Positions 1 to 64,000 of a DNA stretch of 64,000 bases are shown in pieces. The position numbers were made by a program, and so were the translations under genes. This stretch comes from a virus. Lineage: Duplodnaviria; Caudoviricetes. The stretch's first letter is position 1; each line of letters starts with the position of its first letter. The stretch lies in the IMG/VR virus record IMGVR_UViG_3300025915_000004, positions 1 through 64,000 of that record; one strand, 5' to 3'. The notes beneath the pieces were generated by a model. That model did not search any database, had not been told where the DNA came from, and was given only the letters and a program-made list of their open reading frames with translations.

Positions 1-234
1 TTCGGGCGGCATGGACATTACGACCTGCACGGCTGATTGCAGCGCTATGCGCTCGATGCCCGCCTGGAGGTAGAGCCGCGCCAGGAGCGCGGTGACGGCG
101 GGAACGGTGAGCGCGGCTCCGAGTGCCACGATCGACGCGTTCACCAGCTCCTCATCGCTTGGGCCCGCAGTCTGCTGTGCAGGCGGCGCGGGCTGCTGGA
201 CGGGTGCGGCGGGCTGGAACGTCGTGGTGGTCAT
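1..234 (-). CDS. 5' part of the gene downstream of portal, truncated by the window edge; possibly a MuF-like minor head protein
   Basis: Manual translation from ATG at 234 (MTTTTFQPAAPVQQ...ELVNASIVALGAAL...) is open to position 1 and overlaps the portal stop (ATGA). Product inferred from position only. Confidence 0.45.
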   Translation of the reverse strand, partial: MTTTTFQPAAPVQQPAPPAQQTAGPSDEELVNASIVALGAALTVPAVTALLARLYLQAGIERIALQSAVQVVMSMPPE

Positions 235-1820
235 GCCGGCCTCGGACCCGGCGGGTTGGCTCCGCCCGCGCCGAGGCGGGATGTCTGGTCCGGCGGGGAC
301 GGCGGGCCGGATACGCCGGGTGTGCTGCGCAGACCCTCGGGTACCCCTCCCTGCCGCTGCGCGGCCTGGCGGGTGAGGTTCTGCGCCGCGCCGACCAGGC
401 CCTGCACCTGTCCGAAGCCTGCGGCGGCCGAGGGCGGCATGCCGGGCGGAGGCTGGGCCGCCAGTTGCTCGGCGCGCTGCTGCGCGGTCGACACCAACGC
501 GGTGTGCACCTGGTCGATGTCGAGTTGCAGGATGGACGCCATGCGCTCGGTGATCAGGTCGAACACCGGCACGGGGATGTGCAGCACGGGAGCGGCGGCG
601 AGCTGGCCGAACAGGGTGATCAGCGATTGCAGCTGCTCGTCTTGCAGCGGCCCGAACCGCCAGTTCGGGAAGGCCGCGCCCGGCCCGAAGTTCAGCAGCA
701 CCAGCGGACGCAGCACATCGTAGGACAGGGATTCGGAGATCTCCTTGGCCACGGCCTGGCGGGACTTGAGGTAGAACGCACTCTGATCCTGGGAGAGCGC
801 GTACGCGCCGCGGCCGGCCGTGGCTCCGCCGACCAGGCCCATGAATCCGGCCAGGACGCTCTGCGTCTGCCAGCCTTCGAGGAACATCATGGCTTCGGAG
901 AAGAACTTGCCGGCGTCGGCGGGCTGCTGGATGACCTCGAACGCCTTCTTGCCGTCGGACGGGTGGACCAGGCCGACCACGCCCGCGCCCTTGAGCTGGG
1001 CGATGTCGTCGGCCCGGACGTTGGCTTCGGGTTGGTCGCCGCCGTAGGCGACGATGCGCTGCATCGCCTGGTTCTCCAGGAAGTAGTACCAGAGGAACAG
1101 CAGCTTCATCTTGGTCTGGTAGACCCAGTAGCTGACGTCCATCTCCGAGATGCCGCTGAGCGGTTCGCGGTGCTTTCCGTGCGTGTGGATGTAGGAGCGC
1201 ACCTTCGGGATGTCGACGTATCCGGGGACCTTCTGGTCTTTGGTCAGCATCAGGTTGCCGCCGAACAGCCAGACCTGCTGGCGGAAGCCGTTCGGGACCG
1301 CGGTGCGCGAGTTGTAACGGGCCTGGCAGGTGGCGGGCGGGCGGAACGCGATCTTGTCGTAGACGATCCGGCCGTCGGATTCGCGGACCTTCCAGACCTT
1401 CTCGAAGAACGCCCGGCGGTATACCTGCGCACTGGTGACCTGGCCGACCAGCTCGTGTGCCGGAGTGGACATGCCGCCGTCGGTGTCCGGAGTCAGCAGC
1501 ACGCTGCGTGCGAAGTCGGTCTCCCCGCTGTCGCCCTTGGCGGGCTCGATGGAGAAGTCGGCCTCGCGGATCGGCAGGGTCAGCACGGACTCCACCGCAG
1601 AGCAGATTCCGTCCCGGCGGAACATCGCCTTCATGTCTCGTGCGGTGTACTCGCCGTAGTCGAAGACGTCGCCTTCGCCGTACCAGGCGAACAGCCGCTG
1701 TCCGAGGTCGAACTGCGTGCCGAGCTCCTGGCCGAGCAGCTCGCGCTTCGACTTTGCCTTCAGGTCCGGGAACGCGTAGACGTTGTCTCCGAGTGCCGAA
1801 CTGCCGTTCGTCTTGGCCAC
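231..1820 (-). CDS. Phage portal protein (DUF935-like)
   Basis: Directly after terminase; about 530 aa with portal-like segments (LTLPIREADFSIEP, RAFFEKVW). GTG at 1820 has an AGGGAG SD; the 653-aa track ORF is over-extended. Confidence 0.85.
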   Translation of the reverse strand: MAKTNGSSALGDNVYAFPDLKAKSKRELLGQELGTQFDLGQRLFAWYGEGDVFDYGEYTARDMKAMFRRDGICSAVESVLTLPIREADFSIEPAKGDSGETDFARSVLLTPDTDGGMSTPAHELVGQVTSAQVYRRAFFEKVWKVRESDGRIVYDKIAFRPPATCQARYNSRTAVPNGFRQQVWLFGGNLMLTKDQKVPGYVDIPKVRSYIHTHGKHREPLSGISEMDVSYWVYQTKMKLLFLWYYFLENQAMQRIVAYGGDQPEANVRADDIAQLKGAGVVGLVHPSDGKKAFEVIQQPADAGKFFSEAMMFLEGWQTQSVLAGFMGLVGGATAGRGAYALSQDQSAFYLKSRQAVAKEISESLSYDVLRPLVLLNFGPGAAFPNWRFGPLQDEQLQSLITLFGQLAAAPVLHIPVPVFDLITERMASILQLDIDQVHTALVSTAQQRAEQLAAQPPPGMPPSAAAGFGQVQGLVGAAQNLTRQAAQRQGGVPEGLRSTPGVSGPPSPPDQTSRLGAGGANPPGPRPA

Positions 1821-1867
1821 GGCTCTCCCTCCCGGTGATCGCCTGTGTGCAGGGTAACGCCGAGCGG

Positions 1868-3589
1868 TCAGAACGGCGACGCCCCGTCGCCCCACGAGCG
1901 TACGTTGCCGCGCCGGCCGTGCTCGGGCGCGTCGTCGGGATCGCGCGGACCCCACGCGTCCAGATCGCCGAACCCTCCGGCGGTGGCGGCCTCTTGGAGC
2001 AGTCTGCGGCGCACAGCCCGAGGCACTGCGACGCGCTCGTCCTCGGGGTCCGGTGCGGCGATCGGATCCCCGCCGCGTTCGCGTTCGAGCGGTACGGCGG
2101 CGGCCAGGGCTCCGCCGTCGCGGGACCACTGTGCCACCAGCGCGCGCTGCACCGGTCCGAAGCTCATCTCCAGGAACGGGTGGCACGCCCACACCAGGGA
2201 GTCGAGCCGGTCGGGAGAGCGTTCGTTGGCGGCTCCAGTGAAGGTCGCCTGCTGGTCTTCCAGCTCGGTGAATCGCTCAGTATCCAGGCGCCATTCGGTC
2301 TTGCCGGTGTCCGGATCGAGTGCCTGGTATTTGGTCGTCTTCTGGCAGTGCTTGACGATGCCACGTTCGTACAAACCGGATATCGGTTCGGCGCGGGTGC
2401 GTTTGGCCTCTCCTGCGTGGATCTTCTCCACTTTCACACGCTTCTGGATTACGCCTTCCTTGAGCAAGGCCTTCTGGATCTGCTCGATCAAGTCCATCAT
2501 CCACTGGCCGCCGTGGTTCTTCTCCACGATGACTGTGGCGTCCAGCTGCGCGGCGCGGATCAGGAACCGACGGGCGAACGGGGCCGGGGCCTCCTGGCCG
2601 CCCCATGACTCGATGACGTAGACCTGGTCCCGCATCGGTCCGAGTCCGACGATCGTGTACGCCTGTTCGTCGGACTCCTCTGTGCCGTCGGACGGGTCCA
2701 CGCCGATTTTGATTGACGTCAGGTATTCGGGGCCGCCATCTTCGCCGACTCCCGGACACTGCGCGGCCTCGATCATCTGGCGTGTCCACAGCGCGTTGGC
2801 GACGTCGTCGAGCAGTTCGCCTTCAAGCTCCTGGCGCTCCAGCCGGGTGCCCTTGGCTGCGCCGACCACTGAGCGAAAGAACGATTCGGACAGGTTCTTG
2901 ATGTTGTCCAGAGTGCGCAGCCGGCGCAGGATCACCGGTCCGTCGCCGAACTCGTCGTCTCCTCGGCTGGCGCGGATCAACCGACGCACCAGCGCGCGGG
3001 CGGGACGGGACGCCTTCGGCGTACCGGTGAGGATGATCTTCGAGGAGCCTTTGCGGACGGCGAACCGGATCGACTCTTCCCAGGCGGTCTTCCAGCGCTT
3101 CCACAGGCCGACCTCGTCGCCCCAGGCCGCGCGCAGGTTCTTGCCCTGCACGCGCAGCGCGCCGTCGTCGGCCGAGTCGACGTAGATCACGTGTCCGCTG
3201 CGTAGGCCGATCTCGCCGTAGCTGCGGTAGGCGTAGTCGACGGTGCGCGACAGGCCGTGCTTGACCTCTCCAGCCGTGGTCCCCAGCGCCGCGAGGATGC
3301 CGGACTCACCCTCGACGCATACCGTCCAGGCGTCCCGGTAGGTGGGTGCGATGATGCCGTACTGGCCGGGCGGGTTGAATTCGAGGTCCGCTTCGATCAG
3401 CTCTGCCAGGCCGGCGGCGCCGGATCGAGTCTTGCCGCTGCCACGGCCGCCCTGGAAGTAGATGACGCGCCAGTCGCCTTCGGGCAGTCTCTGCTCCGGC
3501 CGGGCGTCACGGTGCCAGCGGGCGGTGGCGGACTCGACCACGACTCCGGGGTCGAGCCGCCGTGCCCACTCCTTCAGGATGTTGCCCAT
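1868..3589 (-). CDS. terL: Terminase large subunit
   Basis: Walker A GGRGSGKT, Walker B AAWGDE, motif III LTGTP, nuclease acidic motifs IGVDPS and DRLDSLVW. Confidence 0.95.
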   Translation of the reverse strand: MGNILKEWARRLDPGVVVESATARWHRDARPEQRLPEGDWRVIYFQGGRGSGKTRSGAAGLAELIEADLEFNPPGQYGIIAPTYRDAWTVCVEGESGILAALGTTAGEVKHGLSRTVDYAYRSYGEIGLRSGHVIYVDSADDGALRVQGKNLRAAWGDEVGLWKRWKTAWEESIRFAVRKGSSKIILTGTPKASRPARALVRRLIRASRGDDEFGDGPVILRRLRTLDNIKNLSESFFRSVVGAAKGTRLERQELEGELLDDVANALWTRQMIEAAQCPGVGEDGGPEYLTSIKIGVDPSDGTEESDEQAYTIVGLGPMRDQVYVIESWGGQEAPAPFARRFLIRAAQLDATVIVEKNHGGQWMMDLIEQIQKALLKEGVIQKRVKVEKIHAGEAKRTRAEPISGLYERGIVKHCQKTTKYQALDPDTGKTEWRLDTERFTELEDQQATFTGAANERSPDRLDSLVWACHPFLEMSFGPVQRALVAQWSRDGGALAAAVPLERERGGDPIAAPDPEDERVAVPRAVRRRLLQEAATAGGFGDLDAWGPRDPDDAPEHGRRGNVRSWGDGASPF

Positions 3590-3618
3590 AGCGGCAGGTT
3601 AGCGCGCTGCCGACGCGT

Positions 3619-3939
3619 TCAACTGTTGTCCGGGTCCGGGCCTGAGTCCGGCTCCGGCTCCGGCTCCATCTCCGCGACTTCGGGCGGTGGCGGAGGCGGG
3701 TACACCTCCTGAAGATACGGCTCGGGCCGGACGACCTTCACCTGGCGCATCGGCGTGAGGTGGTACTCCCACGCCGCTCCCTCCGGATTGCTCTCCAGCC
3801 AGCCGACGACCTGGCTTTCGAGGGTGAGCAGACCGACCGGCCACTCACCGCGGTTCTGCACGAGCCAGACGCGGCCGGTCAGCTGCTCGTTGGTCCGCTC
3901 CGGCTCGCTGCGCGCGATCTCGCCCTTGAGCGTCGTCAC
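3619..3939 (-). CDS. Hypothetical protein
   Basis: Tightly packed between neighbours (4-bp overlap); Pro/Glu-rich tail. Confidence 0.6.
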   Translation of the reverse strand: MTTLKGEIARSEPERTNEQLTGRVWLVQNRGEWPVGLLTLESQVVGWLESNPEGAAWEYHLTPMRQVKVVRPEPYLQEVYPPPPPPEVAEMEPEPEPDSGPDPDNS

Positions 3940-4295
3940 TCGCCGGCGCCGTCGTCGAGACTGATGGAGAGCAGCGGGTGCGTCTCCTGGTCATGCAGGT
4001 GCTGGCGCAGGAGGTAGCCCTCCAGCGCCCAGATCTCGGACCGTGCCTTGTCCTTGGCCAGCCTCTTGCCGATCTCGACGTCGAAATTGTCGGGACTGGC
4101 CGAGGCGGAGTGCCCGACGACGTGGAAGCCGTTGGCCAGGGTGAGCACGCACACGGTCAGCGACGTGCCGTCGGGCTGCCAGTACCGCTCATCGGCGATC
4201 AGCGCGTCGATGCGGTCGGGCGTGACGCGCGGCGCGGTGTGGCCGGTCGACTCGTGGTCGGCCTGGAGCTGTTCATCGGTGTATTGACCCGTCAC
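3936..4295 (-). CDS. Phage N4 Gp49 / Sf6 gp66 family protein
   Basis: Signature LTVCVLTLANGFHVVGHSASASPDNFDVEIG...IWALEGYLL. Confidence 0.85.
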   Translation of the reverse strand: MTGQYTDEQLQADHESTGHTAPRVTPDRIDALIADERYWQPDGTSLTVCVLTLANGFHVVGHSASASPDNFDVEIGKRLAKDKARSEIWALEGYLLRQHLHDQETHPLLSISLDDGAGE

Positions 4296-4307
4296 GGGTG
4301 TCTCCTC

Positions 4308-4868
4308 CTACTGCCATTGTCCGTTGAAGCGCCACCAGTCGGCGGGCGTGACCAGTTCGGTCCTGCTCATCGGCGGCGAGATGAGGCCCAGGTGGGCGTA
4401 GGCCCATGACGCCGCGCTGGAGCAGACCACGTGCGCAGGGCGGGCGACGCCGTCGTCCCAGCCCCACCAGTGATCGATCAGCTTGGCCAGTTCGACGGCG
4501 TGCAGCGCGACGTTGAAGTCGGCGAGGATGCCGCCCACCCAGTCGTATCGTGTGCCGAGCAGGCCCTCCATCAGCTTGCACACGGCCTGGCGCTGTTGGT
4601 CCGTCTTGGGCTGCCCGGTGTTGCCTCGGGCCGCGCGCAGCTGCGCCTTCGTCGAGAAGTACGTGGACATGTCCACCCACCCGACGCCGGACGGCCGTCC
4701 TTCGATGCCCCAGCACACGCCGTTCTTGTCCGTGTGGTGGACGACGACGACGTGGTCGACCGGAGCGTGGTGCCCGGTCAGCCATGAGCCGATGATGATC
4801 GGGATGCGCCCGAGTCCGGGGGCGTCGACCGCCCAGACGTCGCCGGGGTTGAATCCGAGACCGGTCAC
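4308..4868 (-). CDS. Permuted papain-like (YiiX/YebB-type NlpC/P60) amidase
   Basis: His before Cys arrangement: DHVVVV ... YDW ... VVCSSAASWAY. Confidence 0.65.
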   Translation of the reverse strand: MTGLGFNPGDVWAVDAPGLGRIPIIIGSWLTGHHAPVDHVVVVHHTDKNGVCWGIEGRPSGVGWVDMSTYFSTKAQLRAARGNTGQPKTDQQRQAVCKLMEGLLGTRYDWVGGILADFNVALHAVELAKLIDHWWGWDDGVARPAHVVCSSAASWAYAHLGLISPPMSRTELVTPADWWRFNGQWQ

Positions 4869-5785
4869 AGCGACTCAAGCCATTTCTTGATCTTGTCGAT
4901 CAGCCATTGGATGCAGCCGGGCGGCGGCGGGTCGGGCGGACTGGGATTCGGAACCGGTCCCGGAGACGGCGGATCCGGGACCGGCGGCACCGGAGCCGGG
5001 AACGGCTTGCCGGTGATCTCGGTGTAGTCCGCGGCGAGCTGCGCCAGGTTGACACCCTCCTGGAATTCCCGAGAGCCGAGGTGCTCGGGCCAGATCACGG
5101 CCCAGCACTCGCTGACCTGCTTGGTCCAGAAGCGGTCGGTGAACGAGGTCTCCTGCGCCCAGGTGATGAACTTCTCGTCTCCGCCGAGCTGCGGCGAGCT
5201 GCCGCCTGGTGCGGTGCCGTACCCGCCGACCAGCACCGAGTGGCCGCCGACGTCGGGGGAGCCGGAGACGTAGTCCCACTTCTGCCCGGCGTCGAACTGC
5301 TGCTCGTTGGCCTCCAGCACGTCGAAGCCGACCCACACCGCGCCGAAGATGGCGATGGCGGCCTTGACCTCGGCCGGGTTGGTGTGGTCGACGGCGGCGA
5401 AGCCAACCGCCTTGACACCGTCCGGGCCGCCGGTCTTGACCAGGTATTCGAGCAGCGTCTGGATGTCCATGCCGTCGTCGGCGCCGTTCGGGTTCTGCGT
5501 GGCGTAGACCTGCAAGACCTGGGCGATCGGCGGATAGAACTCGGTGCTCAGCGTGCTGGTGGTCACCCTGCGCAGATTCGCCCAGGTGACCGCGACGCAG
5601 TCGCCCAGCCTGTCGTTGCCGAGCATCTGCCACCGGTCGAGCGTGGCGAGATAGTCGGCGGCGCTCGGGTAGCTGGGTACGACCCCGGTCAGCGAGCGGG
5701 ATAGCCGGATCCGCGGCCGGGCGGGGTCGTTGGGCCGGCGCCCGTACTTGCCGCGCTGCCGCCCTGGCATGCCGTCATGAGTCAT
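4865..5785 (-). CDS. Papain-like (C1-type) cysteine peptidase
   Basis: QMLGNDRLGDCV (catalytic Cys), GGHSVLVGGY (His), FITWA; Pro-rich tail. Confidence 0.7.
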   Translation of the reverse strand: MTHDGMPGRQRGKYGRRPNDPARPRIRLSRSLTGVVPSYPSAADYLATLDRWQMLGNDRLGDCVAVTWANLRRVTTSTLSTEFYPPIAQVLQVYATQNPNGADDGMDIQTLLEYLVKTGGPDGVKAVGFAAVDHTNPAEVKAAIAIFGAVWVGFDVLEANEQQFDAGQKWDYVSGSPDVGGHSVLVGGYGTAPGGSSPQLGGDEKFITWAQETSFTDRFWTKQVSECWAVIWPEHLGSREFQEGVNLAQLAADYTEITGKPFPAPVPPVPDPPSPGPVPNPSPPDPPPPGCIQWLIDKIKKWLESL

Positions 5786-5795
5786 CTGATCCTTC

Positions 5796-6713
5796 TCACG
5801 TGAGGGGTGCGGTCCAGGACGCGCCCCAGGTCTTCGGGCCGACCTCGCCGTCGCGCGTCAGGCCCTTCTCGGACTGGAACTGCTCGCAGACGCCGAACGA
5901 CTGGTCGCCGAACCGGCCGTCCACGCTGATCGTCCAGCCTCGGTCCTTCATGCGCTGCTGCCACAGCGCGACCACGTGGTTGTCGACCGAGCTGTAGTAG
6001 CCCGAGTGGCAGTGCGGGTCCGAGCTCGGACGGCTGAGATAGTCGGCCGGGCCGAACGGCCAGGTCGGTACGTGCGTCACGGGCTTGGGCGGCACGGGCG
6101 GCTTCGGCGCCGGCGTGCCGGGCAGGAACGTGTTCAGCCAGCTGGTCAGGCCGACGTCGATGTCCTGCTGGGCCATCGCCAGTGTGACGTTCGTTCCGGG
6201 AACGAACGTGTTCGGGTTGCTGGCCGGGTCGCCGAACTGCACACCGCGCACGTCCGGGTGTGCGGCGATGAAGTTCTGCGCCGCCGCCAAAGACCAACTC
6301 CAGTTGGCGACGACGTAGTAGACGTCCTTCGGGTTGGCGATGGCCGCCTTGAGAGCAGGCCAGTCGCCGTATCCGACGTACAGGACGGACTCTTCGCCGC
6401 GGGACTGGCGGGCGGCCACGGCCCGGTGCGCCGCCGCGTTAGTGCCCGCCTGGAACTCCACATCTGCTACGGCGCAGGGCACGCCGAAGCGCGACTGCCC
6501 GGAGGCGAACAGGTCGAGCGTCGGCGTCTGGTCGATACCCATCAGGCCGACGCCGGCGGCGCGGGCCTGATCGACCTGCGCCTGGGTGATCTGAATGGTG
6601 GCGGTGCTGCCCAGCTGCGTGAGGTAGACCGCTCGGACGAAACCCTTCGCCAGGGGTGCGCGGCCGAAGTCGCCGCTGGTGACGTCGCTGTACTCGGTGA
6701 ACTGGCTGCTCAT
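5796..6713 (-). CDS. Endolysin: putative GH25-like glycoside hydrolase domain plus C-terminal peptidoglycan-binding domain
   Basis: C-terminal WQQRM...VDGRFG...FQSEKGLTRDGEVGPKTW is a typical PG-binding domain; N-terminal DVE motif and Pro linker. Catalytic family is tentative. Confidence 0.75.
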   Translation of the reverse strand: MSSQFTEYSDVTSGDFGRAPLAKGFVRAVYLTQLGSTATIQITQAQVDQARAAGVGLMGIDQTPTLDLFASGQSRFGVPCAVADVEFQAGTNAAAHRAVAARQSRGEESVLYVGYGDWPALKAAIANPKDVYYVVANWSWSLAAAQNFIAAHPDVRGVQFGDPASNPNTFVPGTNVTLAMAQQDIDVGLTSWLNTFLPGTPAPKPPVPPKPVTHVPTWPFGPADYLSRPSSDPHCHSGYYSSVDNHVVALWQQRMKDRGWTISVDGRFGDQSFGVCEQFQSEKGLTRDGEVGPKTWGASWTAPLT

Positions 6714-7707: not shown

Positions 7708-8589
7708 TCACGGTAACTTTGCGAGATCGTCGTCACTGCTCTGTTTCCTGTCCTGCCTCTCGGCACGCCGTGCGAGCAGGCGGCGCAGTGCTTCTGCGCC
7801 CTGCTGCGGAACCACGCCATTGCCGATGGCTTTGAGTTGGTGGTTGCGCGGGACGCCAGAAACTGCGGTGACCCAGCCCTCCGGCAGGCCCATCATCCAT
7901 TCCGGGAACCGTGTGGTCATGCGTGGCCCGTTGAGTCCGGGTTCGGTCGGCTCCGGGGCGGGATGGCCGAATACGCGCTCCCACCGCTGGACGGCGAGCG
8001 TGTACGGACCCCAGCTGTGTACCAGCAGATGCTCCACCTCATCCGCCAGGGTGGCCCCGTGGCCACCCTGGCGGCGCTTGTCCGGGTGCTGCGAGCCGCC
8101 GTTGATCGCGAGCTGCGCTGTCGGTGTCTTCAGCAGTCTGATAATGCGTGTCTGAAGATCGTCTTTCGATTCGGGCCGAGAGAGGGGGAACGCACCCTTC
8201 CCGTCTGTCGCTCTCGGCGTCGGGAGCATACGCATAACCGCTGAAGGCAGCATCAGATCCCCCGATGAGCCGCGCTGATTCGGGCCGCCTTTGGATCCGT
8301 CAGTCGCTCGGGGGGTCGGAAGAGGCTTCTGGTCGCCGAATAATGCCCGGATCATGCAAGCTTCCATGTCGCCTCCACCGCCGTTGGCCCGTGCCAAGCT
8401 GAGCGCCATGGCTTCGTCAAACGATCGGGGCGGATTAGCTGGTCGGCCAGGCGAGGAGAAAGATCCTGTTGCGAGGGTGGGGGGCGCCGACATCGGATGC
8501 GCGTACACACTCCCACTCCGCATCGAACCCGAGCGCGGCAAGATCTGCGAGAACGATTTCGAGGCCGCGCCTGACGAGGGCTGCGACAT
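7708..8589 (-). CDS. C5 cytosine DNA methyltransferase, C-terminal polypeptide (variable region plus motifs IX-X)
   Basis: Three (P/K)TP repeats, EWMMGLPEGW, LKAIGNGVVPQQ. The start is uncertain (8589 or 8664). Confidence 0.8.
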   Translation of the reverse strand: MSQPSSGAASKSFSQILPRSGSMRSGSVYAHPMSAPPTLATGSFSSPGRPANPPRSFDEAMALSLARANGGGGDMEACMIRALFGDQKPLPTPRATDGSKGGPNQRGSSGDLMLPSAVMRMLPTPRATDGKGAFPLSRPESKDDLQTRIIRLLKTPTAQLAINGGSQHPDKRRQGGHGATLADEVEHLLVHSWGPYTLAVQRWERVFGHPAPEPTEPGLNGPRMTTRFPEWMMGLPEGWVTAVSGVPRNHQLKAIGNGVVPQQGAEALRRLLARRAERQDRKQSSDDDLAKLP

Positions 8590-8968
8590 TCTCCAGCAGG
8601 ACGAGAGCAGGTCGTAATGCGCCAATGGCCCGTGCGACCTGCGGCCAGAGCCAGCGGTCATCATCCACCCCTTTTCGCAGCCCTGCGTCTGATATCGGCT
8701 GACATGGAAATCCCGCTATGAGCAAGTTGACGGGCTCTACCTGCGTGTAGTCGATGGCGCTGATGTTCCCGAGGTTCGGCACGCCTGGCCAGTGGCTCGC
8801 CATGATCTGGGCGGCGTACTGATTGGTGTCCGGTTTGCCTGTTTTGCTGTCCGGCGGCTCCCACTGGGCGTACCAAGCAAGACGGGAGTTCGGGAATACG
8901 TCCTCGACAGCCATGTCCAAGCCGCCGTATCCGCTGCACAGAGAGCCGACGACCAGTTCACCCATCAA
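8435..8968 (-). CDS. C5 cytosine DNA methyltransferase, N-terminal polypeptide (motifs I-VIII)
   Basis: SLCSGYGG (I), AGFPCQP (IV), LLENV (VI), PHPRNRIF (VIII), then stop. Confidence 0.9.
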   Translation of the reverse strand: MMGELVVGSLCSGYGGLDMAVEDVFPNSRLAWYAQWEPPDSKTGKPDTNQYAAQIMASHWPGVPNLGNISAIDYTQVEPVNLLIAGFPCQPISDAGLRKGVDDDRWLWPQVARAIGALRPALVLLENVAALVRRGLEIVLADLAALGFDAEWECVRASDVGAPHPRNRIFLLAWPTS

Positions 8969-9019
8969 GCACCTCGCAGATCCTCCCTGAACGCTCCTGC
9001 TGATGACAAGTGTAGCAGG

Positions 9020-10961: not shown

Positions 10962-11212
10962 CAGTTGCTCACCGCCTTGTGCAGTCCGGGAATGCCGTCG
11001 AGCAGAAGAAGATCGTGGTGTGGATACGTGATCGGAGCTCCGGGGGCGGCGACGGCCGATCCGTTGCTGATCAGCCTGGCCGCGTTGACGTCGTCGGTGT
11101 CGTCCCATACGTCGCCGGGCACGATGTCCGGCCAGCGGGCCCGTTCGGTGCCGGCCCGGATCGTGGTCAGTGCCTGCAAACGGGTGGTCATGCCCCTCAA
11201 TGTAACGCTCAT
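10961..11212 (-). CDS. Small hypothetical protein
   Basis: ATG at 11212 overlaps the stop of 11209..12378 (ATGA). Confidence 0.55.
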   Translation of the reverse strand: MSVTLRGMTTRLQALTTIRAGTERARWPDIVPGDVWDDTDDVNAARLISNGSAVAAPGAPITYPHHDLLLLDGIPGLHKAVSN

Positions 11213-55258: not shown

Positions 55259-55263
55259 GCCGC

Positions 55264-56238: not shown

Positions 56239-57656
56239 GCGACCGAGCCTCCGATCATCTTGAAAGCATTGCGCCAGGAGACCGTACAGCGCGAGTTCCC
56301 GGTCAGATCCTGCGCCGAGTAGGCGACCGGGACCACCAGTCCGGCGGGGATCATCAGCTGGTCCAGCGAACTGCCGCGCACGACTCCGGACAGGGACGCG
56401 GCGACCGGCGTCGAGCCGTAGGGGTCGGCGCCGATCGAGCTGGTGATTCCGACGTAGCGGTTCCAGGGCACGGTGGAGATGACGGCCGTCTGGTTGGGCG
56501 CCAGTGTCGTCTGCAATGTCAGGGACGCGGATCTGCCCTGGTACTTGATCGAGGGGTTGACGCACGGCCCGGTGATGGTGATCACAGGCCAGGTGTCGGT
56601 GGTGCCGGCGTTCAGGATCGCGCTGGACTGGTACTGGCCCTGGGTGACGATGACGTCGTCCACGTAGAAGCTGACGGCGCCGGAAGCGCCGTAGCTGACG
56701 GAGAGGGACAGCCACGCCGCTCCGGCCGGGGCTGTCTGTGATCCGCCGGCCTGCGCTCCGGTGCCTGTGCTGCTTGTCGTCGCCGTCGCCGAGCCGAAGG
56801 TGACCGGCGAACCGATGGGCGCGAGGGCGCCATTGAGCCACTGGCCGGTCACCGTGGCGGTCCCGCTGCCCGAGCTGACGCGCACGTACAGACTGGCCTG
56901 GTACGACAGTCCGGCGAGCACGGAGAGGTTCACGTACTTGACGACCGCGTTTCCGGCTCCGGTGATTGCGGCTTTCATCGAGTAGGAGCCGGTCAGCGCC
57001 CAGTCCGTCGACTGGCCGAGGGAGGAGATCAGGTTCTGCGCCGTCCAGTTCCCGGTCCAGGGCAGCTCGAAGTCGGAGTCCGCCGCGGCCACCATGTTGT
57101 CGGCGGTCTGCACTGCGGCCAGCGCCACCGGCGGTGTGAGCGGCGGTGCGACGCCGCCTCCGGTGAACGCGAAGGCCGTGCCGACTGTGAAGGACTGGAG
57201 CACGTCGCCGTAGAACGCGTTGTCGGCGCAGTCGAACTCGGCGGTGAAGGGGATGTACCCCTGGGTGATCATTCCGAGGACGGGCGTGCAGTTGCGGCCA
57301 CGGCCGTAGACACGGCGGGTGACCGTGCTGCCCGGATACTTCATCCGCAGCGTGCTGACCGCTCCGGGCGACCACCGTGCGGTCTTGTTCTCCCAGGCGG
57401 CTGCGAAGCTGTCGTAAGCAGCCATCTGCGCCGCTCCGGTGCCGCCCTGCTGGAACGCCTGGCCGGTGAAGGCGATGGCCATGCCGGGCAGCACGTCGAA
57501 GCCGAACCGCCGTCCGTCGTTGTTGACCAGTTGGATGTCCTGGTTCACGCCGGCGCCGGGCTGGATCTCGGTCTTGGCGATGGACACCGTCTGGCCGGCG
57601 CCGAAGACCAGGCCGTCGATCGAGTATTGGCCGGAGGAGAGGACGGGGTCGCTCAT
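56235..57656 (-). CDS. Distal tail protein with an inserted carbohydrate-binding-like module
   Basis: Follows the tape measure (ATGA overlap); WPVITITGPCVNP; DSDFE...GSYSMK...YQASLYVR insert. Confidence 0.75.
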   Translation of the reverse strand: MSDPVLSSGQYSIDGLVFGAGQTVSIAKTEIQPGAGVNQDIQLVNNDGRRFGFDVLPGMAIAFTGQAFQQGGTGAAQMAAYDSFAAAWENKTARWSPGAVSTLRMKYPGSTVTRRVYGRGRNCTPVLGMITQGYIPFTAEFDCADNAFYGDVLQSFTVGTAFAFTGGGVAPPLTPPVALAAVQTADNMVAAADSDFELPWTGNWTAQNLISSLGQSTDWALTGSYSMKAAITGAGNAVVKYVNLSVLAGLSYQASLYVRVSSGSGTATVTGQWLNGALAPIGSPVTFGSATATTSSTGTGAQAGGSQTAPAGAAWLSLSVSYGASGAVSFYVDDVIVTQGQYQSSAILNAGTTDTWPVITITGPCVNPSIKYQGRSASLTLQTTLAPNQTAVISTVPWNRYVGITSSIGADPYGSTPVAASLSGVVRGSSLDQLMIPAGLVVPVAYSAQDLTGNSRCTVSWRNAFKMIGGSVA

Positions 57657-60600
57657 GGGCCTGCCACCGCCGCTTGGAGCTCTAGAAGGCGCAGGGTGCG
57701 GGTCAGTTCGCGCAGTGCGTACGCGGTGTCCCCGGTGCCGTAGTAGGCCGTCTGGTAGGTGCCGATCAGCGGCCGGTCCTTGCCGAGCGCGTCGATGAGC
57801 CTGGAGAGGTCGCTGCGCCGCCCGGTCAGGGATGCCAGCGGTGTGACGCTGACAGCCTCGGGGCCGCGCTCCCCGACTCCGATCATCGTCGGGTGGCTGA
57901 AGACGGCGTTCAGGCCGCTGCCGTACCACCCGTAGGCCAGCTCGTGTGCCCACGCTCCCGAGGGGCTGCCGTAGCGGCCGAGGATGTAGGAGACCATCCA
58001 CATGATCTGTGTGGCCGGATCCGCGGAGCCGCCCGCAGACGGCGGCCAGCCGGCCTTCGGGTACTTGGTGTAGGGCAGCGCCTGCGCGATGCCGTACGCA
58101 CCGGAGGACGGATTCATCGCGGTGTTGGACCAGCCGGACTCGCGTGTCGCGACGTTGTTCCAGTCGAGCCAGGGCTGTCCGACCGACCATGCCGGGTACA
58201 GCCGCTTGGCCAGGGCCGCGTTCGCACCCGTCGCGCCGCCGGCGTACGCGCCGCCGGTGCTGCCCTGAGTGCTGAACTGGCCGCCAAGCAGACCGCTGAA
58301 GAACTTCGACGCCCAGCTGACTGCGCTTCCGATCATCTTCTTCGGAATGCCGGTGAGCATCTGCGCCAGGTCGCCCGACGCGTTCGGGATGCCGATCAGG
58401 TCGGTCAGGGCGCTGGTCAGGGCGCTGGTGTCGCCGGTGATCAGGGACCAGACCACCTTGCCCACGTCGGCGGCTCCGCCGGTGAGGGATCCGACCAGGC
58501 CGCCGTTGGCGTATCCGGGGATGCCGACCGCGGCGAACAGCGGCGCGAGTATGGCCGAGTGCGCGGCCGAGACGACGGTCTCGCCGCGGCTGGCGCGGAT
58601 CAGGACGTCGTCGGACTTCGGTCCCGTACCGGTCAGGATCTTGCCGCCCGCGGCGAAGGTGCCGATGTTCGGCAGGTCGAGCTTGCCCAGGCCGATGGCG
58701 TCCATCACGTCGTTCCAGAACCGGCGGATGCCGTTGTCGTACACGGTGCCGATCAGGAAGTTGACCGGGACTTTGAAGACGTCCTCGACTTTGTTCCACG
58801 CGGTCTTGATCGCATCGACGCCGGTGTCGAACCAGCTCGGCACGGTCTTGGTGATGAAGTCGGCGATCTTGGCTCCGAAGTCCTTCCAGATCCACTGGTA
58901 GAAGTCTGATGCAACCTGCTTGATATCGCCCCAGATCTGCGACCAGTGCTTGTACAGCTCGATAGCGCCGAGGGCGATCAGGCCGACCGGCCCGAGCAGC
59001 GGCAGCAGGAACTTGCCGAAGCCGTTCCAGATGAAGTCCCAGGCATCTTTCGCCCACTGCTTGATATCGCCCCAGATCCGCTGCCAGTGCTCGGCGAGGT
59101 AGCCGATCGCCAGCCCTATCAGGCCGATCGCGGTGGGGATGGGGTCGATGGCCAGCAGCAGCAGCCCGAGGACGGGCAGCAGCAGGTGCGTCGAGTTGAG
59201 CCAGTTGACCACGTTGACGATCAGCTTCGCGATCAACAGCAGCAAGGGGGTGAGCACATTGACGATCCCGACGATCGCGTCTCCCAGGCCGCGCGCCATC
59301 AGGTCCGCCAGATGCTCGATCGTCGGGGTGAGTGCTATCAGGACCTTGAGTAGCGGCGGCAGCAGAGCCATCACGAGCTGGGTCAGCGACGGCAGCAGGG
59401 TCAAGATCGCCTTAGTGAATATCTCTATTCCGGCGTTGATCAGAGCCTGGAAAATCTGAAGCAGCGGCGGTACGAACGGTGCGAGCTGCTTCACCAGCAT
59501 ATTGATAAAGGTGGCGAGGGGTCCGACGACGTTCTCCAGGGCGTCGCCGAGCACCTGGAAGACCCCCGCGTTCTCCAGCACGTTGAAGACGTCGCCGAGC
59601 ACCTTGGAGAGCAGGGCGAAGGACGGTGCCAGGGCGCCGATCAGCTGGACGAGCGGCTGGAGGATGCCGACTAGGTCGGCCAGCACGGCGCCCGCCAGCT
59701 CGGCGAGGATCTTGCCGATGGGGATCAGCACGGGTTCGAGCTGCTTGAGCAGGCCCGCGAACAGCTGGAAGGCGGGAGCCAGGGATGTGGCCATGATCCC
59801 TGCGAGCTGGCCGATGAGCGGCAGGAAGCCGAGCACAAGATCGAGAAGTGCCTTCAGCAGCACGGCCGCCGGCTTCATCACGGGGGCGAAGGCGGCGAAC
59901 ATCTTGCCCAGCTCGGTGCCGACGGTGCCGAGTACACCCTCCAGCGTGCTCAAGATCGGCTGGACGGCCTTGAACATGGCCAGCAGTCCGGGCAGCAGGT
60001 TCTTGAACAGCTGGCCGATGGAGGAGAGGAACGGCTCCATCAGCGGCGCCACGGCGCGGAAGGCCTGGCCGAGCCCTGGCAACACGTCCTTCGCCAGCTC
60101 GGTGATCCCCTTGACGAACGGTTGGATCAAGGTCGCGGCGCCGGCGAACAGCTGGGTCAGCGGCCCGGTCAGACTCTTCATCAGCGCCGGAACCTGGGAG
60201 AATACCTGCTCCAGCGGTTTGAGCAGCGGCTGCGCCGACTTCTGCAATCCGGCTTGCAGCGATCCGAGGGCCTTCTGCGCCGGATCGTAGAGCTGTCCTG
60301 GGCTGTCCTTCGTGCCGATCAGCTGCTTGGCGCCCAGGGCGACCACGCCCGCGCCGACGCCACCGAAGCCGAGCGCCGCCGTCGGGCCCAGCAGCGCGGG
60401 CAAGGCGCCGAGCGCCGAGGCACCGAGGCCGATCTGTGTCGCCCTCTTCGCGGAGAGGCCGAGGATGCCCGGCCCGGCTGCCGATCCCAGCTTGCCGAAG
60501 AAGCTCTTGAACCCCTCGGCGGTCGGCTTCAGCGCCGCTATGACGTCGTCCGCCTTTTTGTTGCTGCCCAGCATCTGAGAGAGCAGTCGGTACAGCAGGC

Positions 60601-61153
60601 TGTTGTTGCTGCTTCCGCCTCCGCCTGCACCGCCAGGACTGGTGAACTGCCCCTTGGCGTTCCTCGGCTGCCCTGAAGACCCGCCGCCGCCCGGAACGGT
60701 GCCTCCCGGACCGACACCCCCAGGACCCGGCGCCGGGCCCGGAGCGGACACCGTGGGACGTTGCTGTGCGGATCCGGGTGCCGGACCGCCCGCCCCGCCT
60801 CCGGCGCTGGGCGTGTTGAACATCTTGCCGAGCAAGCCGCCCTGTGCGGCCTGCTGCGCGGACGGAGAGCCGGTCACGGGGTGCGGAGAGAACAGTGCGT
60901 TCAGAGAGCCCAGGACTGAGCCCTGCGGGCTGGTGCGCAGCCGCATGGCGGCGTCGCGGGAGATCTGCTGGTCCAGGTCCGCGAACATCTTGCGAGCGCG
61001 AGTCATCGACGCGGTGTCGAAGACGGCGGAGATCTTCACGACGTGCTTCTGCGACTCGAAGTCGCGCACCCGCTGCTCGGCCCGGTCCATGTCGCGGTCG
61101 AACTGATCGAGCCGGACGGTCAGGGTGGCTTCGATGGCTCCAGCATCGAACAT
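57653..61153 (-). CDS. Tape measure protein with a C-terminal lytic transglycosylase-like domain
   Basis: MFDAGAIEATL start, long amphipathic repeats, RESGW...NPSSGAYGIAQAL...YILGRYG. Confidence 0.92.
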   Translation of the reverse strand: MFDAGAIEATLTVRLDQFDRDMDRAEQRVRDFESQKHVVKISAVFDTASMTRARKMFADLDQQISRDAAMRLRTSPQGSVLGSLNALFSPHPVTGSPSAQQAAQGGLLGKMFNTPSAGGGAGGPAPGSAQQRPTVSAPGPAPGPGGVGPGGTVPGGGGSSGQPRNAKGQFTSPGGAGGGGSSNNSLLYRLLSQMLGSNKKADDVIAALKPTAEGFKSFFGKLGSAAGPGILGLSAKRATQIGLGASALGALPALLGPTAALGFGGVGAGVVALGAKQLIGTKDSPGQLYDPAQKALGSLQAGLQKSAQPLLKPLEQVFSQVPALMKSLTGPLTQLFAGAATLIQPFVKGITELAKDVLPGLGQAFRAVAPLMEPFLSSIGQLFKNLLPGLLAMFKAVQPILSTLEGVLGTVGTELGKMFAAFAPVMKPAAVLLKALLDLVLGFLPLIGQLAGIMATSLAPAFQLFAGLLKQLEPVLIPIGKILAELAGAVLADLVGILQPLVQLIGALAPSFALLSKVLGDVFNVLENAGVFQVLGDALENVVGPLATFINMLVKQLAPFVPPLLQIFQALINAGIEIFTKAILTLLPSLTQLVMALLPPLLKVLIALTPTIEHLADLMARGLGDAIVGIVNVLTPLLLLIAKLIVNVVNWLNSTHLLLPVLGLLLLAIDPIPTAIGLIGLAIGYLAEHWQRIWGDIKQWAKDAWDFIWNGFGKFLLPLLGPVGLIALGAIELYKHWSQIWGDIKQVASDFYQWIWKDFGAKIADFITKTVPSWFDTGVDAIKTAWNKVEDVFKVPVNFLIGTVYDNGIRRFWNDVMDAIGLGKLDLPNIGTFAAGGKILTGTGPKSDDVLIRASRGETVVSAAHSAILAPLFAAVGIPGYANGGLVGSLTGGAADVGKVVWSLITGDTSALTSALTDLIGIPNASGDLAQMLTGIPKKMIGSAVSWASKFFSGLLGGQFSTQGSTGGAYAGGATGANAALAKRLYPAWSVGQPWLDWNNVATRESGWSNTAMNPSSGAYGIAQALPYTKYPKAGWPPSAGGSADPATQIMWMVSYILGRYGSPSGAWAHELAYGWYGSGLNAVFSHPTMIGVGERGPEAVSVTPLASLTGRRSDLSRLIDALGKDRPLIGTYQTAYYGTGDTAYALRELTRTLRLLELQAAVAGP

Positions 61154-61420
61154 CAGCCGCCGCCACCCTTCCGCGCGTTGCGCGCCGCCTCCAGATCCTT
61201 ACGCATGGCGTTGATGTCCAGCACATCCGCGCCGGTGTCCACGTTCTCCCGGACCGTGGGTCCGACCTGCCCCGACGACTCGCTGAGCGGTGCTGTGTCG
61301 ACACTGAACGGGACTTCTTCGTCCTCGCTCAGCATCTCCAGGTACATCCGCTGGTAGTCCCAGCGCAGTGCGTTCCACTCGGCCGGCCCGATGTTTAGAT
61401 ACCGGCGGACGACATAGAGG
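61153..61420 (-). CDS. Post-chaperone ORF (gpT-like), start undefined
   Basis: Protein-like sequence (VILYVVRRYLNIGPAEWNALRWDYQRMYLE) begins at the chaperone stop in the -1 frame. Confidence 0.5.
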
Positions 61421-61421
61421 A

Positions 61422-61874
61422 TTACCCGGCGGCTGCGGATCGCAGAGGAGTCACTACCGCTACTCCACCGCCGGTCTCGGCTTCCGGGGAAACCACCTCC
61501 TGCTGGAGCCACGCGAAGAACCGGACCCGGATCCGCATCGGCAGGTCGGAGATTTCTTCGGTCGAGGGTCGTCCCGAGCACAGCTTGGAGCAGGCTGCGG
61601 CCATGCCCCGGTACACGTTCAGAAGCTGCTCGGGGTCGTATCCGTCGAGCTGCTGGAAGAACTCCTGCGGGTTGGCCAGGTCCAGTCCGGCCACGTCCCC
61701 GACGATCGCCCCGGCCTCCTTCATCAAGTCGCGCAGATCGGCGATGAAGGAGGTGATCATCTCATCGGAGGGTTCTGCGATCGTCCCCTTGGCGCTCTTG
61801 TGCGGATAGCCCTTCACCGTGGTGAAGTCGTAGTCGAGGGGATCGACTACGGATCCGGCGTCGAATTTGGGCAT
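61422..61874 (-). CDS. Tail assembly chaperone
   Basis: Position before the tape measure; ISDLPMRIRVRFFAWL. Confidence 0.7.
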   Translation of the reverse strand: MPKFDAGSVVDPLDYDFTTVKGYPHKSAKGTIAEPSDEMITSFIADLRDLMKEAGAIVGDVAGLDLANPQEFFQQLDGYDPEQLLNVYRGMAAACSKLCSGRPSTEEISDLPMRIRVRFFAWLQQEVVSPEAETGGGVAVVTPLRSAAAG

Positions 61875-61884
61875 CGTGCGGCTC

Positions 61885-62373
61885 CTACGGCTGGACGGGG
61901 ATCAACTGGTAGGCACGGACCGACAGGTTCGTGATCGTGGTGAATTCGACCACCACGCAGCCTTGTGCCGCCGCGGGAATCGATCCGCCGATCGTGCCCG
62001 TGTACGTCGCGCTCGGATTCTGGATGTTGTAGGTGGCCGGGCTCCACGGGCCGAGATACCCGTACGACGTGGCGCCGAGCGTCACCGTCTCGGTGCTGGC
62101 AGGCGGATAGAGTCCGGTGTTCCCGATGGCGTCTCCGACCAGCACGTTGGTGACCCCGGCACCTGCGGCGCCGCAGTAGTACCACAGGATCACCTGGCCG
62201 TTGTTCGGAACGTAGATGCTGTTGTTCGTGCTCCAGGCCGTGAAGGTGCCGCCCGGCGAGCCGGTGTCGTACCCGGCGGACGGTGCGGTGGGCAGGATGC
62301 CGTTCAACGTCCCGCTCAAGGCGCCTAGCCCGCTGTTGAACGGGACTGCCTGAATTGCCACTCGTCCGGCCAT
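61885..62373 (-). CDS. Beta-rich structural or hypothetical protein
   Basis: ATG at 62373 overlaps the upstream TAA. Confidence 0.65.
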   Translation of the reverse strand: MAGRVAIQAVPFNSGLGALSGTLNGILPTAPSAGYDTGSPGGTFTAWSTNNSIYVPNNGQVILWYYCGAAGAGVTNVLVGDAIGNTGLYPPASTETVTLGATSYGYLGPWSPATYNIQNPSATYTGTIGGSIPAAAQGCVVVEFTTITNLSVRAYQLIPVQP

Positions 62374-62726
62374 TACGCGATCACCCTCCACCAGCGGACT
62401 TCGGTTTGTGTGCCGGGCGATGTGAGCCAATAGAAGTACTTGGCTTGTCCGCCGGACTCGCTCCACCCGTCCGGAACGAGATATGTCCCGGCGGACGGCA
62501 ACAGACTGTCGGTCTCTCCAGGCCAGAGAGTACTTCCTGATCCATCTTCCGGGGGAGTGTCCGACCAGTCGGTATTCGCGTATGGACCGGATGCGGTAAC
62601 GCAGTAGGCGCCGAGGTCCATGACAGTGACGCCGTCCGTCTCGCCACCGGTGATCCATTCTCGCGCGGACACGACCCCGTTCGAGTCGGCGTTCTCGGCG
62701 TCGCTTCGCCACTGGACAGTCGTCAC
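62373..62726 (-). CDS. Hypothetical structural-region protein
   Basis: Operon position. Confidence 0.55.
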   Translation of the reverse strand: MTTVQWRSDAENADSNGVVSAREWITGGETDGVTVMDLGAYCVTASGPYANTDWSDTPPEDGSGSTLWPGETDSLLPSAGTYLVPDGWSESGGQAKYFYWLTSPGTQTEVRWWRVIA

Positions 62727-62727
62727 G

Positions 62728-63138
62728 TCACACTCCCGCGATCATGATGTAGTCCGCTGTGAATTCGAACCGGCGGTCTTCCGGGTCCAGTGGCAGCGGT
62801 TGGGGTCTTGCCGACATTCGGTGCACGTGCTGGATCTGCACACCGTCGATGTTGACCGGGAAGGGTGCGCCGAGGATCAGTGCGTCGAGCTGCTGAGCGG
62901 CTTCCTCGGCGGCCAGGGGGTTGTTGGAGGGGCCGCGGACTCGCGCCTGGAAGCTCCAGCCGTCGGTGGCCGGCTCCTCGGTGGTGTATCCCGGACCTCC
63001 GGTCCCGGTGATGTGTACGATCTTGTCCGGTTCGGACACGATCTCCGGCCCGGCGCGCAGCGGGTATCCCGCCTCTTGCCGGGTGTCCCAACCCAGGGAG
63101 GTGATCCAGTCCATGATGACCTGAGTCTGCGCGGTCAC
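62728..63138 (-). CDS. Tail terminator-like protein
   Basis: GGPGY...FQARVRG...AQQLD...DRRFEFTADY; GTGA overlap. Confidence 0.65.
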   Translation of the reverse strand: MTAQTQVIMDWITSLGWDTRQEAGYPLRAGPEIVSEPDKIVHITGTGGPGYTTEEPATDGWSFQARVRGPSNNPLAAEEAAQQLDALILGAPFPVNIDGVQIQHVHRMSARPQPLPLDPEDRRFEFTADYIMIAGV

Positions 63139-63665
63139 AGCCGCCCTCGCAGTGCGTGCGGCTCGTTCTTGCCGGGGATGCGGACGACCTTGCCGCGGCG
63201 CATGAAGTAGACCGTCAGACCCGCCGCCAGCCGGGCGCGCAGGATGGCGCGGCTCTTGATCCGCAGTTCTTCCTTGGTCAGCCGGTGCACCTTCGGCGAC
63301 CGGTCGTAGATCTCGTGTTCTCCCAGGTGCACCTGCGGATGGCCGGACTTGAGCAGGTCGCCCCACTCGCGTGGCGCTGTGATCTCTACCTGGCCTGACA
63401 GGTGCTCGACCGAACGGCGCATCGCGGCGTGGCCGCCGTCGCGCAGCACGCTGCGCGCGTAGTCGTCCAGGTAATCGCGATAGTTGGCCATCAGCGGCCT
63501 TTGAAGGAACTTCGCCATGCCGCCGCGCGGGTGGTGCAGCTCCAGATGCTCGTGCTGGAAATGGGCGTACACCTGGTCCACGACAACGGTTCCGCGCAAG
63601 TGTCCCTCGCGGCTGCCGGTCATCTCCCGCAGCTGTGCGATCCGCTCGGCGAATGCGGCGGCCAT
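63135..63665 (-). CDS. Head-tail / neck protein
   Basis: VYAHFQHE...AKFLQRPL...TAPREWGDLLKSG. Confidence 0.6.
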   Translation of the reverse strand: MAAAFAERIAQLREMTGSREGHLRGTVVVDQVYAHFQHEHLELHHPRGGMAKFLQRPLMANYRDYLDDYARSVLRDGGHAAMRRSVEHLSGQVEITAPREWGDLLKSGHPQVHLGEHEIYDRSPKVHRLTKEELRIKSRAILRARLAAGLTVYFMRRGKVVRIPGKNEPHALRGRL

Positions 63666-64000
63666 CACTGGTACCAGGCGCTTCCGCCGCCGAACTGCTC
63701 GGCGATGTCGGCCAGGCCCGGCCGCCACATGTCCGAGGGGACGTCCGCCTGCAACGCGCCGGTCATCGGGTTGGTCGCGGTGTTCGAGTCGTCCGGCGTG
63801 AAGACCGGCGGCAGCGGGTTGACGACGTGGCCGGTTTCCTGGCCGACGCCTCCGGGCGCGACGACGTCCAGGCGCAGCTTGCCGTCGCGCACGGCGTTGA
63901 GCAGGGCCTGTGCGTCGTTGTAGCGCAGCCGGACCGGATCGTCCGCCGCCATGGCCTTGCTCTTGCGGTAGGTGACGGTCGCCCAGAACGCCGCCAGGTC
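63665..64000 (-). CDS. Head-tail adaptor-like protein, 5' truncated
   Basis: Frame is open to the window end (DLAAFWATVTYRK...YNDAQALL). Confidence 0.55.
   Translation of the reverse strand, partial: DLAAFWATVTYRKSKAMAADDPVRLRYNDAQALLNAVRDGKLRLDVVAPGGVGQETGHVVNPLPPVFTPDDSNTATNPMTGALQADVPSDMWRPGLADIAEQFGGGSAWYQ

Follow-up and report, generated by a model that had tools for sequence, protein, structure and literature searches.

The 64,000 bp analysed here (hereafter the window) are bases 1-64000 of a single-contig virus record in IMG/VR, IMGVR_UViG_3300025915_000004, which is 74,596 bp long and is labelled G000 (or G0) below. G000 represents the whole genome of a tailed actinomycete phage that has not been cultured, and its window holds a real operon of four minus-strand genes at 11.2-16.3 kb, translationally coupled or closely spaced, which resembles the DNA transfer modules of Streptomyces. 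The original prediction had described the element as a candidate conjugative phage-plasmid. Our analysis supports the view that this complete genome of a tailed phage contains a transfer module of the Streptomyces type together with a clt-like repeat array; the label 'phage-plasmid' is unsupported for G000. We consider it about an even chance (probability roughly 0.5) that G000 represents a virulent-type actinophage in which an optional early Tra/Spd-like cassette for the translocation of double-stranded DNA (dsDNA) acts on the phage's own genome via an array of 8-mers and spreads the infection within the mycelium. For transfer in Streptomyces, TraB and the clt locus (direct and/or inverted repeats) suffice, TraB and TraR forming a Kil-Kor pair. 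Published clt loci are varied clusters of direct and inverted repeats, some of them lying partly within tra (PMC3583192).

The genes of the cassette, in the order of their transcription, and the repeats found within them are the following.

15532-16275, minus strand: GntR+UTRA (HutC-type) regulator, the first gene of the cassette (Pfam GntR 66 bits, UTRA 71 bits)
14693-15532, minus strand: membrane protein of 279 amino acids (aa) with four transmembrane helices (4-TM; hydropathy and AlphaFold2 model)
12375-14696, minus strand: FtsK/SpoIIIE/TraB-like dsDNA translocase, 773 aa (PF01580, 27.5 bits against a cut-off of 24)
11209-12324, minus strand: basic protein of 371 aa, rich in Lys, Arg, Ala and Pro, with four CxxC motifs (from its sequence)
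14981-15115: array of TTCCGCCC/GGGCGGAA, with five exact copies and two copies with one mismatch in both orientations, a candidate cis-acting locus of transfer
13994-14010: perfect 17-bp palindrome GGGCGGAAcTTCCGCCC, made of two copies of the same 8-mer and located in the translocase gene (codons ~230-235, disordered linker)

The stop codon of the GntR gene overlaps the start of the membrane-protein gene. Homologues of the regulator adjoin the translocase gene in six relatives, including L023, G007, L013, L005 and L012, and by analogy its position would be TraR/KorA-like. It shares 32% identity with the GntR protein (pZL12.80) encoded by pZL12, a plasmid-phage from Streptomyces.

In the AlphaFold2 model of the membrane protein, the transmembrane helices (residues 5-142) are followed by a disordered stretch (144-200) and a three-helix domain (205-278) with predicted local distance difference test (pLDDT) scores >90. 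The match of this protein to PF10935 (DUF2637) is below the cut-off (14.3 bits); weak DUF2637 matches were obtained for seven of the 15 members of its family, and of the 30 Atlas clusters closest to it, 29 consist of DUF2637 proteins from Actinomycetota. Genes for DUF2637 proteins are found on 348 plasmids, 327 of which are from Streptomyces, and on one plasmid such a gene is positioned immediately 5' of the gene for a conjugative coupling protein. Alignment of the 4-TM family with the DUF2637 protein of L004 and with pZL12.73c using hhalign was not significant, and a search of the PDB with the fold gave no match at E <=0.001. The protein, with its 4-TM topology, is probably a divergent DUF2637-like protein in an SpdB2-like position.

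The Walker A (GxTxxGKS), Walker B (DE) and TQxP motifs of the translocase are invariant across 24 homologues. Its AlphaFold2 model consists of N-terminal helices (residues 98-221, with hydrophobic segments at 122-177), the motor and a C-terminal winged helix, for which residues 692-755 are predicted to fold as helix-helix-helix-strand-strand (pLDDT roughly 83-92). The best Foldseek matches of the model were to the FtsK motor on dsDNA (6t8b, E 2e-15) and to the conjugative coupling protein TcpA. The translocase would thus be a membrane-anchored motor of the hexameric type. Homologues of the basic protein, sharing 38-63% identity, are encoded directly 3' of the translocase in L005, L012, L013, L023 and L024. 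Searches of Pfam, PHROG, NCBIfam and Atlas with the Cys-rich basic protein of G000 gave no match, and its sequence is that of a putative zinc-finger protein of the DNA-binding type.

The 8-mer TTCCGCCC/GGGCGGAA is present in eight exact copies in the window, where 3.4 are expected, and seven of the eight are found within 1.1 kb (13994-15106), a clustering that has P ~1e-10 under random placement. In an unbiased scan the TTCCGCCC array was the top 8-mer cluster of G000 outside low-complexity sequence. Copies in the array occur in three codon phases and lie 285-420 bp 5' of the translocase start, where the membrane-protein gene encodes the disordered linker. The palindrome is found at the same offset, ~680 nucleotides (nt) into the open reading frame (ORF), in L023, L024 and L013, and its motif co-varies with that of the upstream array, being TGCCGCCC in L024 and L013. 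In five related loci the same scan placed the top 8-mer cluster at the equivalent location, 250-500 bp 5' of the translocase start.

L023: TTCCGCCC, five copies, plus the dyad
G007/L024: TGCCGCCC, eight copies, plus the dyad
L013: overlapping GGCGGCAG (seven copies) and TGCCGCCC (four copies), all exact, with more copies at one mismatch and, at the same offset, copies in inverted orientation
L005: GGTGACGG, eight copies
L004: TTCGGCTG, five copies

No 8-mer array was found in the sister phages G001 and G004, which are devoid of the cassette. As repeat clusters of the kind described for clt, the array and the palindrome are putative clt-like cis sites.

Two other sets of repeats were noted at the translocase gene. 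The first, CGCCACGC/GCGTGGCG, occurs in three to four copies, direct and inverted, in four divergent relatives, always within ~200 nt from the beginning of the gene.

Window 14516-14687: CGCCACGC/GCGTGGCG cluster
L004 2802-2928: CGCCACGC/GCGTGGCG cluster
L013 9998-10169: CGCCACGC/GCGTGGCG cluster
L023 10007-10111: CGCCACGC/GCGTGGCG cluster

The CGCCACGC cluster was considered as the conserved binding site and set aside: the peptides that it specifies, RHA, RHA and GVA, are invariant, and the cluster may therefore be coding-driven, the constraint being either on the protein or on the nucleic acid; the codons for the RHA and GVA peptides in CGCCACGC/GCGTGGCG are reverse complements of each other. 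The second is a 10-mer, AGCTGTCCGA, in four tandem copies at 14707-14746, just before the translocase start. It is not conserved in L023, and we assign no role to it.

G000 was compared with three related phage genomes: G004 (68.8 kb), the complete G001 (71.9 kb) and G007 (72.9 kb), which is likewise complete and whose ends overlap by 127 bp. All four genomes are complete or nearly so. All three relatives are syntenic with G000 and share with it ~66-86% nucleotide identity over aligned segments (mean of 76.7% for G007); their capsid proteins are 95-97% and their TerL proteins 75-85% identical to those of G000. The cassette is present in two of the four genomes (G000 and G007) and absent from the other two: G001 and G004 are without the genes at 11209-18718, and other small ORFs occupy the slot. 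Moreover, in both G007 and an independent 21-kb contig from the Sequence Read Archive (L023) the cassette occupies this same position, and the two junctions are intact. The cassette is thus a part of the phage, but an optional one. Relatives with and without the block, which the original prediction had proposed to look for, therefore do exist (G007 and L023 with, G001 and G004 without), whereas the extent given there for the block, 9.6-16.3 kb, has to be corrected to 11.2-18.7 kb. Direct repeats of at least 10 nt were not found at the borders of the variable block, and site-specific insertion was rejected on the grounds of the missing border repeats and of the other small ORFs in the G001 slot. 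Besides the cassette, the block comprises the following genes.

16453-18718, minus strand: 403-aa protein and four small genes, absent from G001 and G004

The N-terminus of the 403-aa protein (16453-17664, minus strand) is signal-like; the protein also contains a long linker rich in Ser and Pro and weakly matches the right-handed Beta_helix family, and its homologue in L023 is 54% identical. It is predicted to be a secreted, non-virion protein.

The translocases of G000 and G007 (L032-L035) share only 37% identity, compared with 60-70% for their cassette neighbours and 95% for the capsid proteins, and the 8-mer motif changes from TT to TG. The low identity suggests either replacement of the translocase allele or fast divergence of the motor between the two phages.

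In the scheme that we favour, the cassette would be expressed after infection, one of its DNA-binding domains would recognise the 8-mer array and so mark the phage genome, in the way that TraB acts at clt, and the motor would pump phage dsDNA that has not been packaged across septal cross-walls or into hyphae in contact. The infection would then spread inside the mycelium without virions. The virulence of the phage, the array-binding protein and the transfer of phage DNA are the parts of this scheme that we infer, whereas the gene content, the architecture of the proteins, the repeat arrays with their conservation, the distribution of the cassette among relatives and the lack of maintenance genes are shown by the analysis. 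A fuller version is offered tentatively, as a possibility well short of an even chance: a virulent phage would pass naked dsDNA between hyphal compartments or touching hyphae with the help of an FtsK/TraB pump, a 4-TM partner and a clt-like array, spreading independently of virions, and the pump and its site specificity would diversify between sister phages.

Several observations weigh against the transfer of phage DNA by the cassette. Two sister phages do without the cassette, which is accordingly dispensable, and a mycelial host is an assumption. The translocase falls outside the curated TraB family, its score against NCBIfam plasmid_TraB (NF041214) being 22 bits against a cut-off of 800, over residues 351-492 only. 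In cultured collections it matches nothing but gp10 of Gilgamesh and proteins of five Streptomyces plasmids of ~130 kb (26-30% identity), and FtsK-like genes are common in Streptomyces phages, where they have no assigned role. Virulence is deduced from the absence of genes in a genome most early genes of which have no known function. Finally, the C-terminal winged helix is near-identical in G000 and L005 while their 8-mer motifs differ completely, and therefore the motor may not be the reader of the array; the array motif tracks the membrane-protein gene that contains the array. The C-terminal domain of the membrane protein, the zinc-finger protein or the GntR regulator may be the reader instead.

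The most serious alternative, which we nevertheless consider rather unlikely, is that the cassette acts on the host or on competitors, through takeover of septation or sporulation, loading of the phage genome into prespores, or exclusion of superinfecting or conjugating DNA. Mimics of host developmental proteins (FtsK-like, WhiB-like and Lsr2-like) are common in Streptomyces phages, and PHROGs places phage FtsK-like proteins in the class 'moron / host takeover'. The dispensability of the cassette would fit such a role, as would the low identity of the translocase relative to its neighbours between sister phages, a pattern seen in genes under conflict. However, the cis arrays are located on the phage's own genome and are missing from relatives without the cassette, which argues for action on the phage's own DNA, although spore loading would also fit. 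A PADLOC search for defence systems returned matches at the level of the P-loop only, and the cassette was consequently rejected as a known defence system.

The first and last 99 bp of the G000 contig are identical, leaving 74,497 bp of unique sequence, and CheckV rates the genome as 100% complete. The part of G000 outside the window amounts to 10.6 kb (14%), more than the 'little' that had been thought to be missing, yet nothing relevant is missing, since this part continues the minus-strand operon and encodes solely head and tail proteins (capsid, tail tube and Mu gp36-like). Six-frame searches of the whole 74.5-kb genome, including the off-window part, with hidden Markov models (HMMs) for Phage_integrase (PF00589), Resolvase (PF00239), ParB_N, AAA_31, CbiA and HTH_3 gave zero matches; the positive controls were matched in 11 to 14 of 14 control genomes. 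The earlier observation that no integrase or ParA/ParB could be recognised thus holds for the complete genome. No integrase (PF00589) or AAA_31-type ParA was detected in G001, G004 or G007 either, and a recognisable plasmid Rep was not found in G000. Lacking genes for integration, partition and repression, G000 is most likely virulent. The absence of integrase and ParAB is typical of a virulent phage and is not evidence for an episome.

The other feature that had been linked to plasmids is an iteron-like array, which is located beside genes for proteins of no known family and a Prim-Pol.

27742-28062: iteron-like array (four units) and AT-rich tract, probably a regulatory region or the origin of phage replication
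28063-28416, plus strand: 117-aa protein, convergent with the gene for the 468-aa protein
28603-30009, minus strand: 468-aa protein of no known family, beside the iterons

The four units, of ~31-33 nt each, occupy 27742-27909, the last three being ~30 nt apart, and are followed by the AT-rich tract; the G+C content (GC) of this intergenic region is 51%, against ~68% for the genome. The core GACGCAC...ATCCATCT is retained in G001 and G004, which have no cassette, within the same intergenic region. Because of this conservation we assign the array to the replication backbone of the phage, and the 'plasmid-type origin' of the original prediction is better described as a backbone feature. The 117-aa protein resembles the last ~95 aa of the 468-aa protein (27% identity over 96 aa, E 2e-4, BLASTP). 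A homologue of its gene is present in G004 and apparently absent from G001. Sequence searches of Pfam, PHROG and PDB with the 468-aa protein gave no match.

Against this background it is improbable that G000 is a conjugative phage-plasmid, that is, an extrachromosomal replicon which, like pZL12, would replicate from an iteron origin and could spread in two ways, in virions and through transfer of the TraB type. G000 does assemble as a circle, it has an iteron-like array beside replication genes and a Tra-like cassette with a clt-like array, and pZL12, with its FtsK-like tra gene and GntR regulator, is a precedent in Streptomyces. Of the hallmarks of a phage-plasmid, the virion, packaging and lysis genes are present in G000 and the partition system is absent, whereas pZL12 has ParA, ParB and a recombinase. 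Neither a recognisable plasmid Rep nor an HTH_3 repressor was found in G000, and sister phages that have no cassette share the iterons. The end overlaps of 99 bp (G000) and 127 bp (G007) may be assembly overlaps, and such end overlaps are expected for headful-packaged, circularly permuted phage DNA. In a set of representative genomes covering 185,579 species of bacteria and archaea, only one relative of the translocase clade was found, and a distant one, unlike what would be anticipated for a resident replicon; this is a weak test, as the host may be unsampled. Furthermore, the backbone exists both with and without the block, which argues that the block is not a maintenance function. The proposed episomal persistence consequently finds no support, and the case corrects the inference from 'no integrase, no ParAB' to a phage-plasmid.

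A still less probable explanation is that a conjugative element of actinomycetes (an AICE, i.e. an actinomycete integrative and conjugative element, or a plasmid) has left the cassette behind as a selfish remnant, which hitch-hikes in the genomes of phages without having a role for them. Besides its patchy presence among sister phages, the module is found in unrelated viral contigs, namely the 116-kb G005, which encodes a tyrosine integrase, and the 60-kb G006. In other metagenomic contigs the translocase clade is encoded near GntR, HTH_17 and NUDIX genes (L005, 1954-4720), which we take to be a pSAM2-like set, or near a KilB-family gene (L004, 6945-7409). The KilB, NUDIX and HTH_17 neighbours link the clade to actinomycete conjugative elements. 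However, the cassette has no integrase, Rep or border repeats, its four genes are intact and keep their synteny and translational coupling even where identity within the phage group falls to 37-60%, and the arrays are maintained. That the traB block of G000, a single metagenomic contig, is an assembly chimera, a refutation raised at the outset, is hardly credible, since the same gene order and both junctions recur in L023 and G007 and since GC and coding strand are continuous across the block.

The cassette provides the FtsK-like genes of Streptomyces phages, to which no function has been assigned, with a testable context in the form of a four-gene operon and relative-specific 8-mer arrays, and the natural cassette-plus and cassette-minus sisters constitute a ready-made comparison. 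If the cassette does carry the DNA of the phage across septa, a virus that infects multicellular bacteria could spread without an extracellular stage. This would bear on the ecology of phages in soil mycelium, on abortive defence at the level of compartments and on the boundary between phages and conjugative elements.

The remainder of the genome is that of a tailed phage. Gene calling based on codon usage yielded 110 genes in three blocks, and GC is 65-71% all along the genome (~68% overall). As originally described, packaging, tail, lysis and PolA genes coexist with the traB-like operon and the iteron-like array, all of which were recovered in family or repeat searches.

7-32.5 kb, minus strand: early region (codon-usage gene call)
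32.6-45 kb, plus strand: replication block (codon-usage gene call)
64 kb, across the contig end, to 7 kb, minus strand: single long operon for structural proteins, lysis and packaging (codon-usage gene call)
1-6713, minus strand: region of the portal, large terminase and lysis genes (family search)
231-1820, minus strand: portal protein, Mu type (family search)
1868-3589, minus strand: TerL, Terminase_6 (family search)
5796-6713, minus strand: lysin, PG_binding_1 (family search)
30644-44905: replication and recombination genes, namely topoisomerase-like (PHROG match), Prim-Pol, PolA, SNF2 helicase, PD-(D/E)XK nuclease and AAA_24 (family searches)
31665-32543, minus strand: Prim-Pol (family search)
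33552-35336, plus strand: PolA with 3'-5' exonuclease (family search)
46771-64000, minus strand: tail genes (tape measure, minor tail proteins and a Gly-rich fibre-like protein), in an operon that continues outside the window into tail tube and capsid genes
53963-57656, minus strand: minor tail proteins (family search)
57653-61153, minus strand: tape measure protein, 1166 aa (family search)

The capsid protein belongs to the Phage_capsid_4 family, and family searches of G000 found no sheath protein, which suggests a siphovirus-type phage. The nearest cultured phages are distant (TerL <=33% and PolA <=40% identical). Megablast of window positions 1-25 kb against 50,697 phage records produced no match, and neither did blastn of 9-17 kb against 72,556 plasmids, the latter being a weak test as the host is possibly unsampled. 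No tRNA genes were found within the window, and a scan of 7-20 kb for promoters and terminators returned nothing over shuffled controls.

The motif AGTTGTCATCAGT is present in four exact copies in the window (0.01 expected), at 19518-19530 (minus), 31653-31665 (minus), 41802-41814 (plus) and 43500-43512 (plus). Each copy is situated 29-44 nt 5' of a gene start and on the gene's own strand (genes at 19489, 31621, 41858 and 43548), and the motif looks like a phage promoter or operator. The gene at 7708-8235 (minus strand) encodes 175 aa that match just the C-terminal part of phage DNA methyltransferases (positions 133-324 of 329 in phrog_1008) and may be a truncated methylase. It is followed by ~780 bp (8236-9019) that are nearly without a convincing gene.

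Among known actinophages, phiC31 and VWB encode SpdB2 homologues, which have been proposed to help the spread of phage DNA (PMC4447253). They may have in common with G000 a spread-type membrane protein encoded by an actinophage, the likeness of the G000 protein being one of 4-TM topology and position; for neither phage is a translocase or a clt-like array mentioned in PMC4447253. FtsK-like genes with no assigned function are also carried by cultured Streptomyces phages (Gilgamesh gp10; Geonosis, Mandalore and Naboo), some of which are lytic. Only the Gilgamesh protein matches the G000 translocase, at 28% identity over 63% of the query, and the publications consulted describe neither a conserved GntR/4-TM/zinc-finger operon nor cis repeat arrays for these FtsK-like genes. 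Five circular Streptomyces 'plasmids' of 129.6-132.6 kb (L003, NZ_CP070374, and others) share an FtsK-like clade with the 129.1-kb temperate phage Gilgamesh (L002), and these may be Gilgamesh-like phages resident as episomes.

The closest parallels to the cassette itself are the Streptomyces systems of pSVH1 (TraB/TraR/SpdB2/clt), pWTY27 (TraA/clt) and pIJ101 (Tra/KorA). Like these, G000 is predicted to possess a single membrane-anchored FtsK-like motor with N-terminal transmembrane helices and a C-terminal winged helix (PMC4447253, PMC3583192). The adjoining GntR-type regulator, the 4-TM partner and the nearby short direct and inverted repeats, partly in coding sequence, are likewise common to both (PMC4447253, PMC3583192). 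The differences are that the G000 motor is alike in sequence at the level of the P-loop only, that its array is located 5' of the motor gene, inside the membrane-protein gene, and that the carrier is a tailed phage without plasmid replication or partition genes.

The plasmid-phage pZL12/phiZL12 (GQ919031), cited in the original prediction as a precedent, is a tailed-phage genome with an FtsK/SpoIIIE-type tra gene, adjoining membrane-protein genes and a GntR regulator, and its tail proteins are 25-40% identical to those of G000. Conjugal transfer of pZL12 has been reported to need the main tra gene together with two genes that adjoin it (PMC3583192). The precedent is sound as regards conjugation by a Streptomyces plasmid-phage and fails as regards maintenance, the ParA, ParB and integrase/recombinase of pZL12 having no counterparts in G000. 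The two translocases are related in the motor domain only (hhalign 94.6%, 21% identity), and the replication genes differ, only the tail genes, part of TerL and GntR being common to both. G000 is thus without the plasmid half of a conjugative Streptomyces plasmid-phage, an entity that is already known in the form of pZL12.

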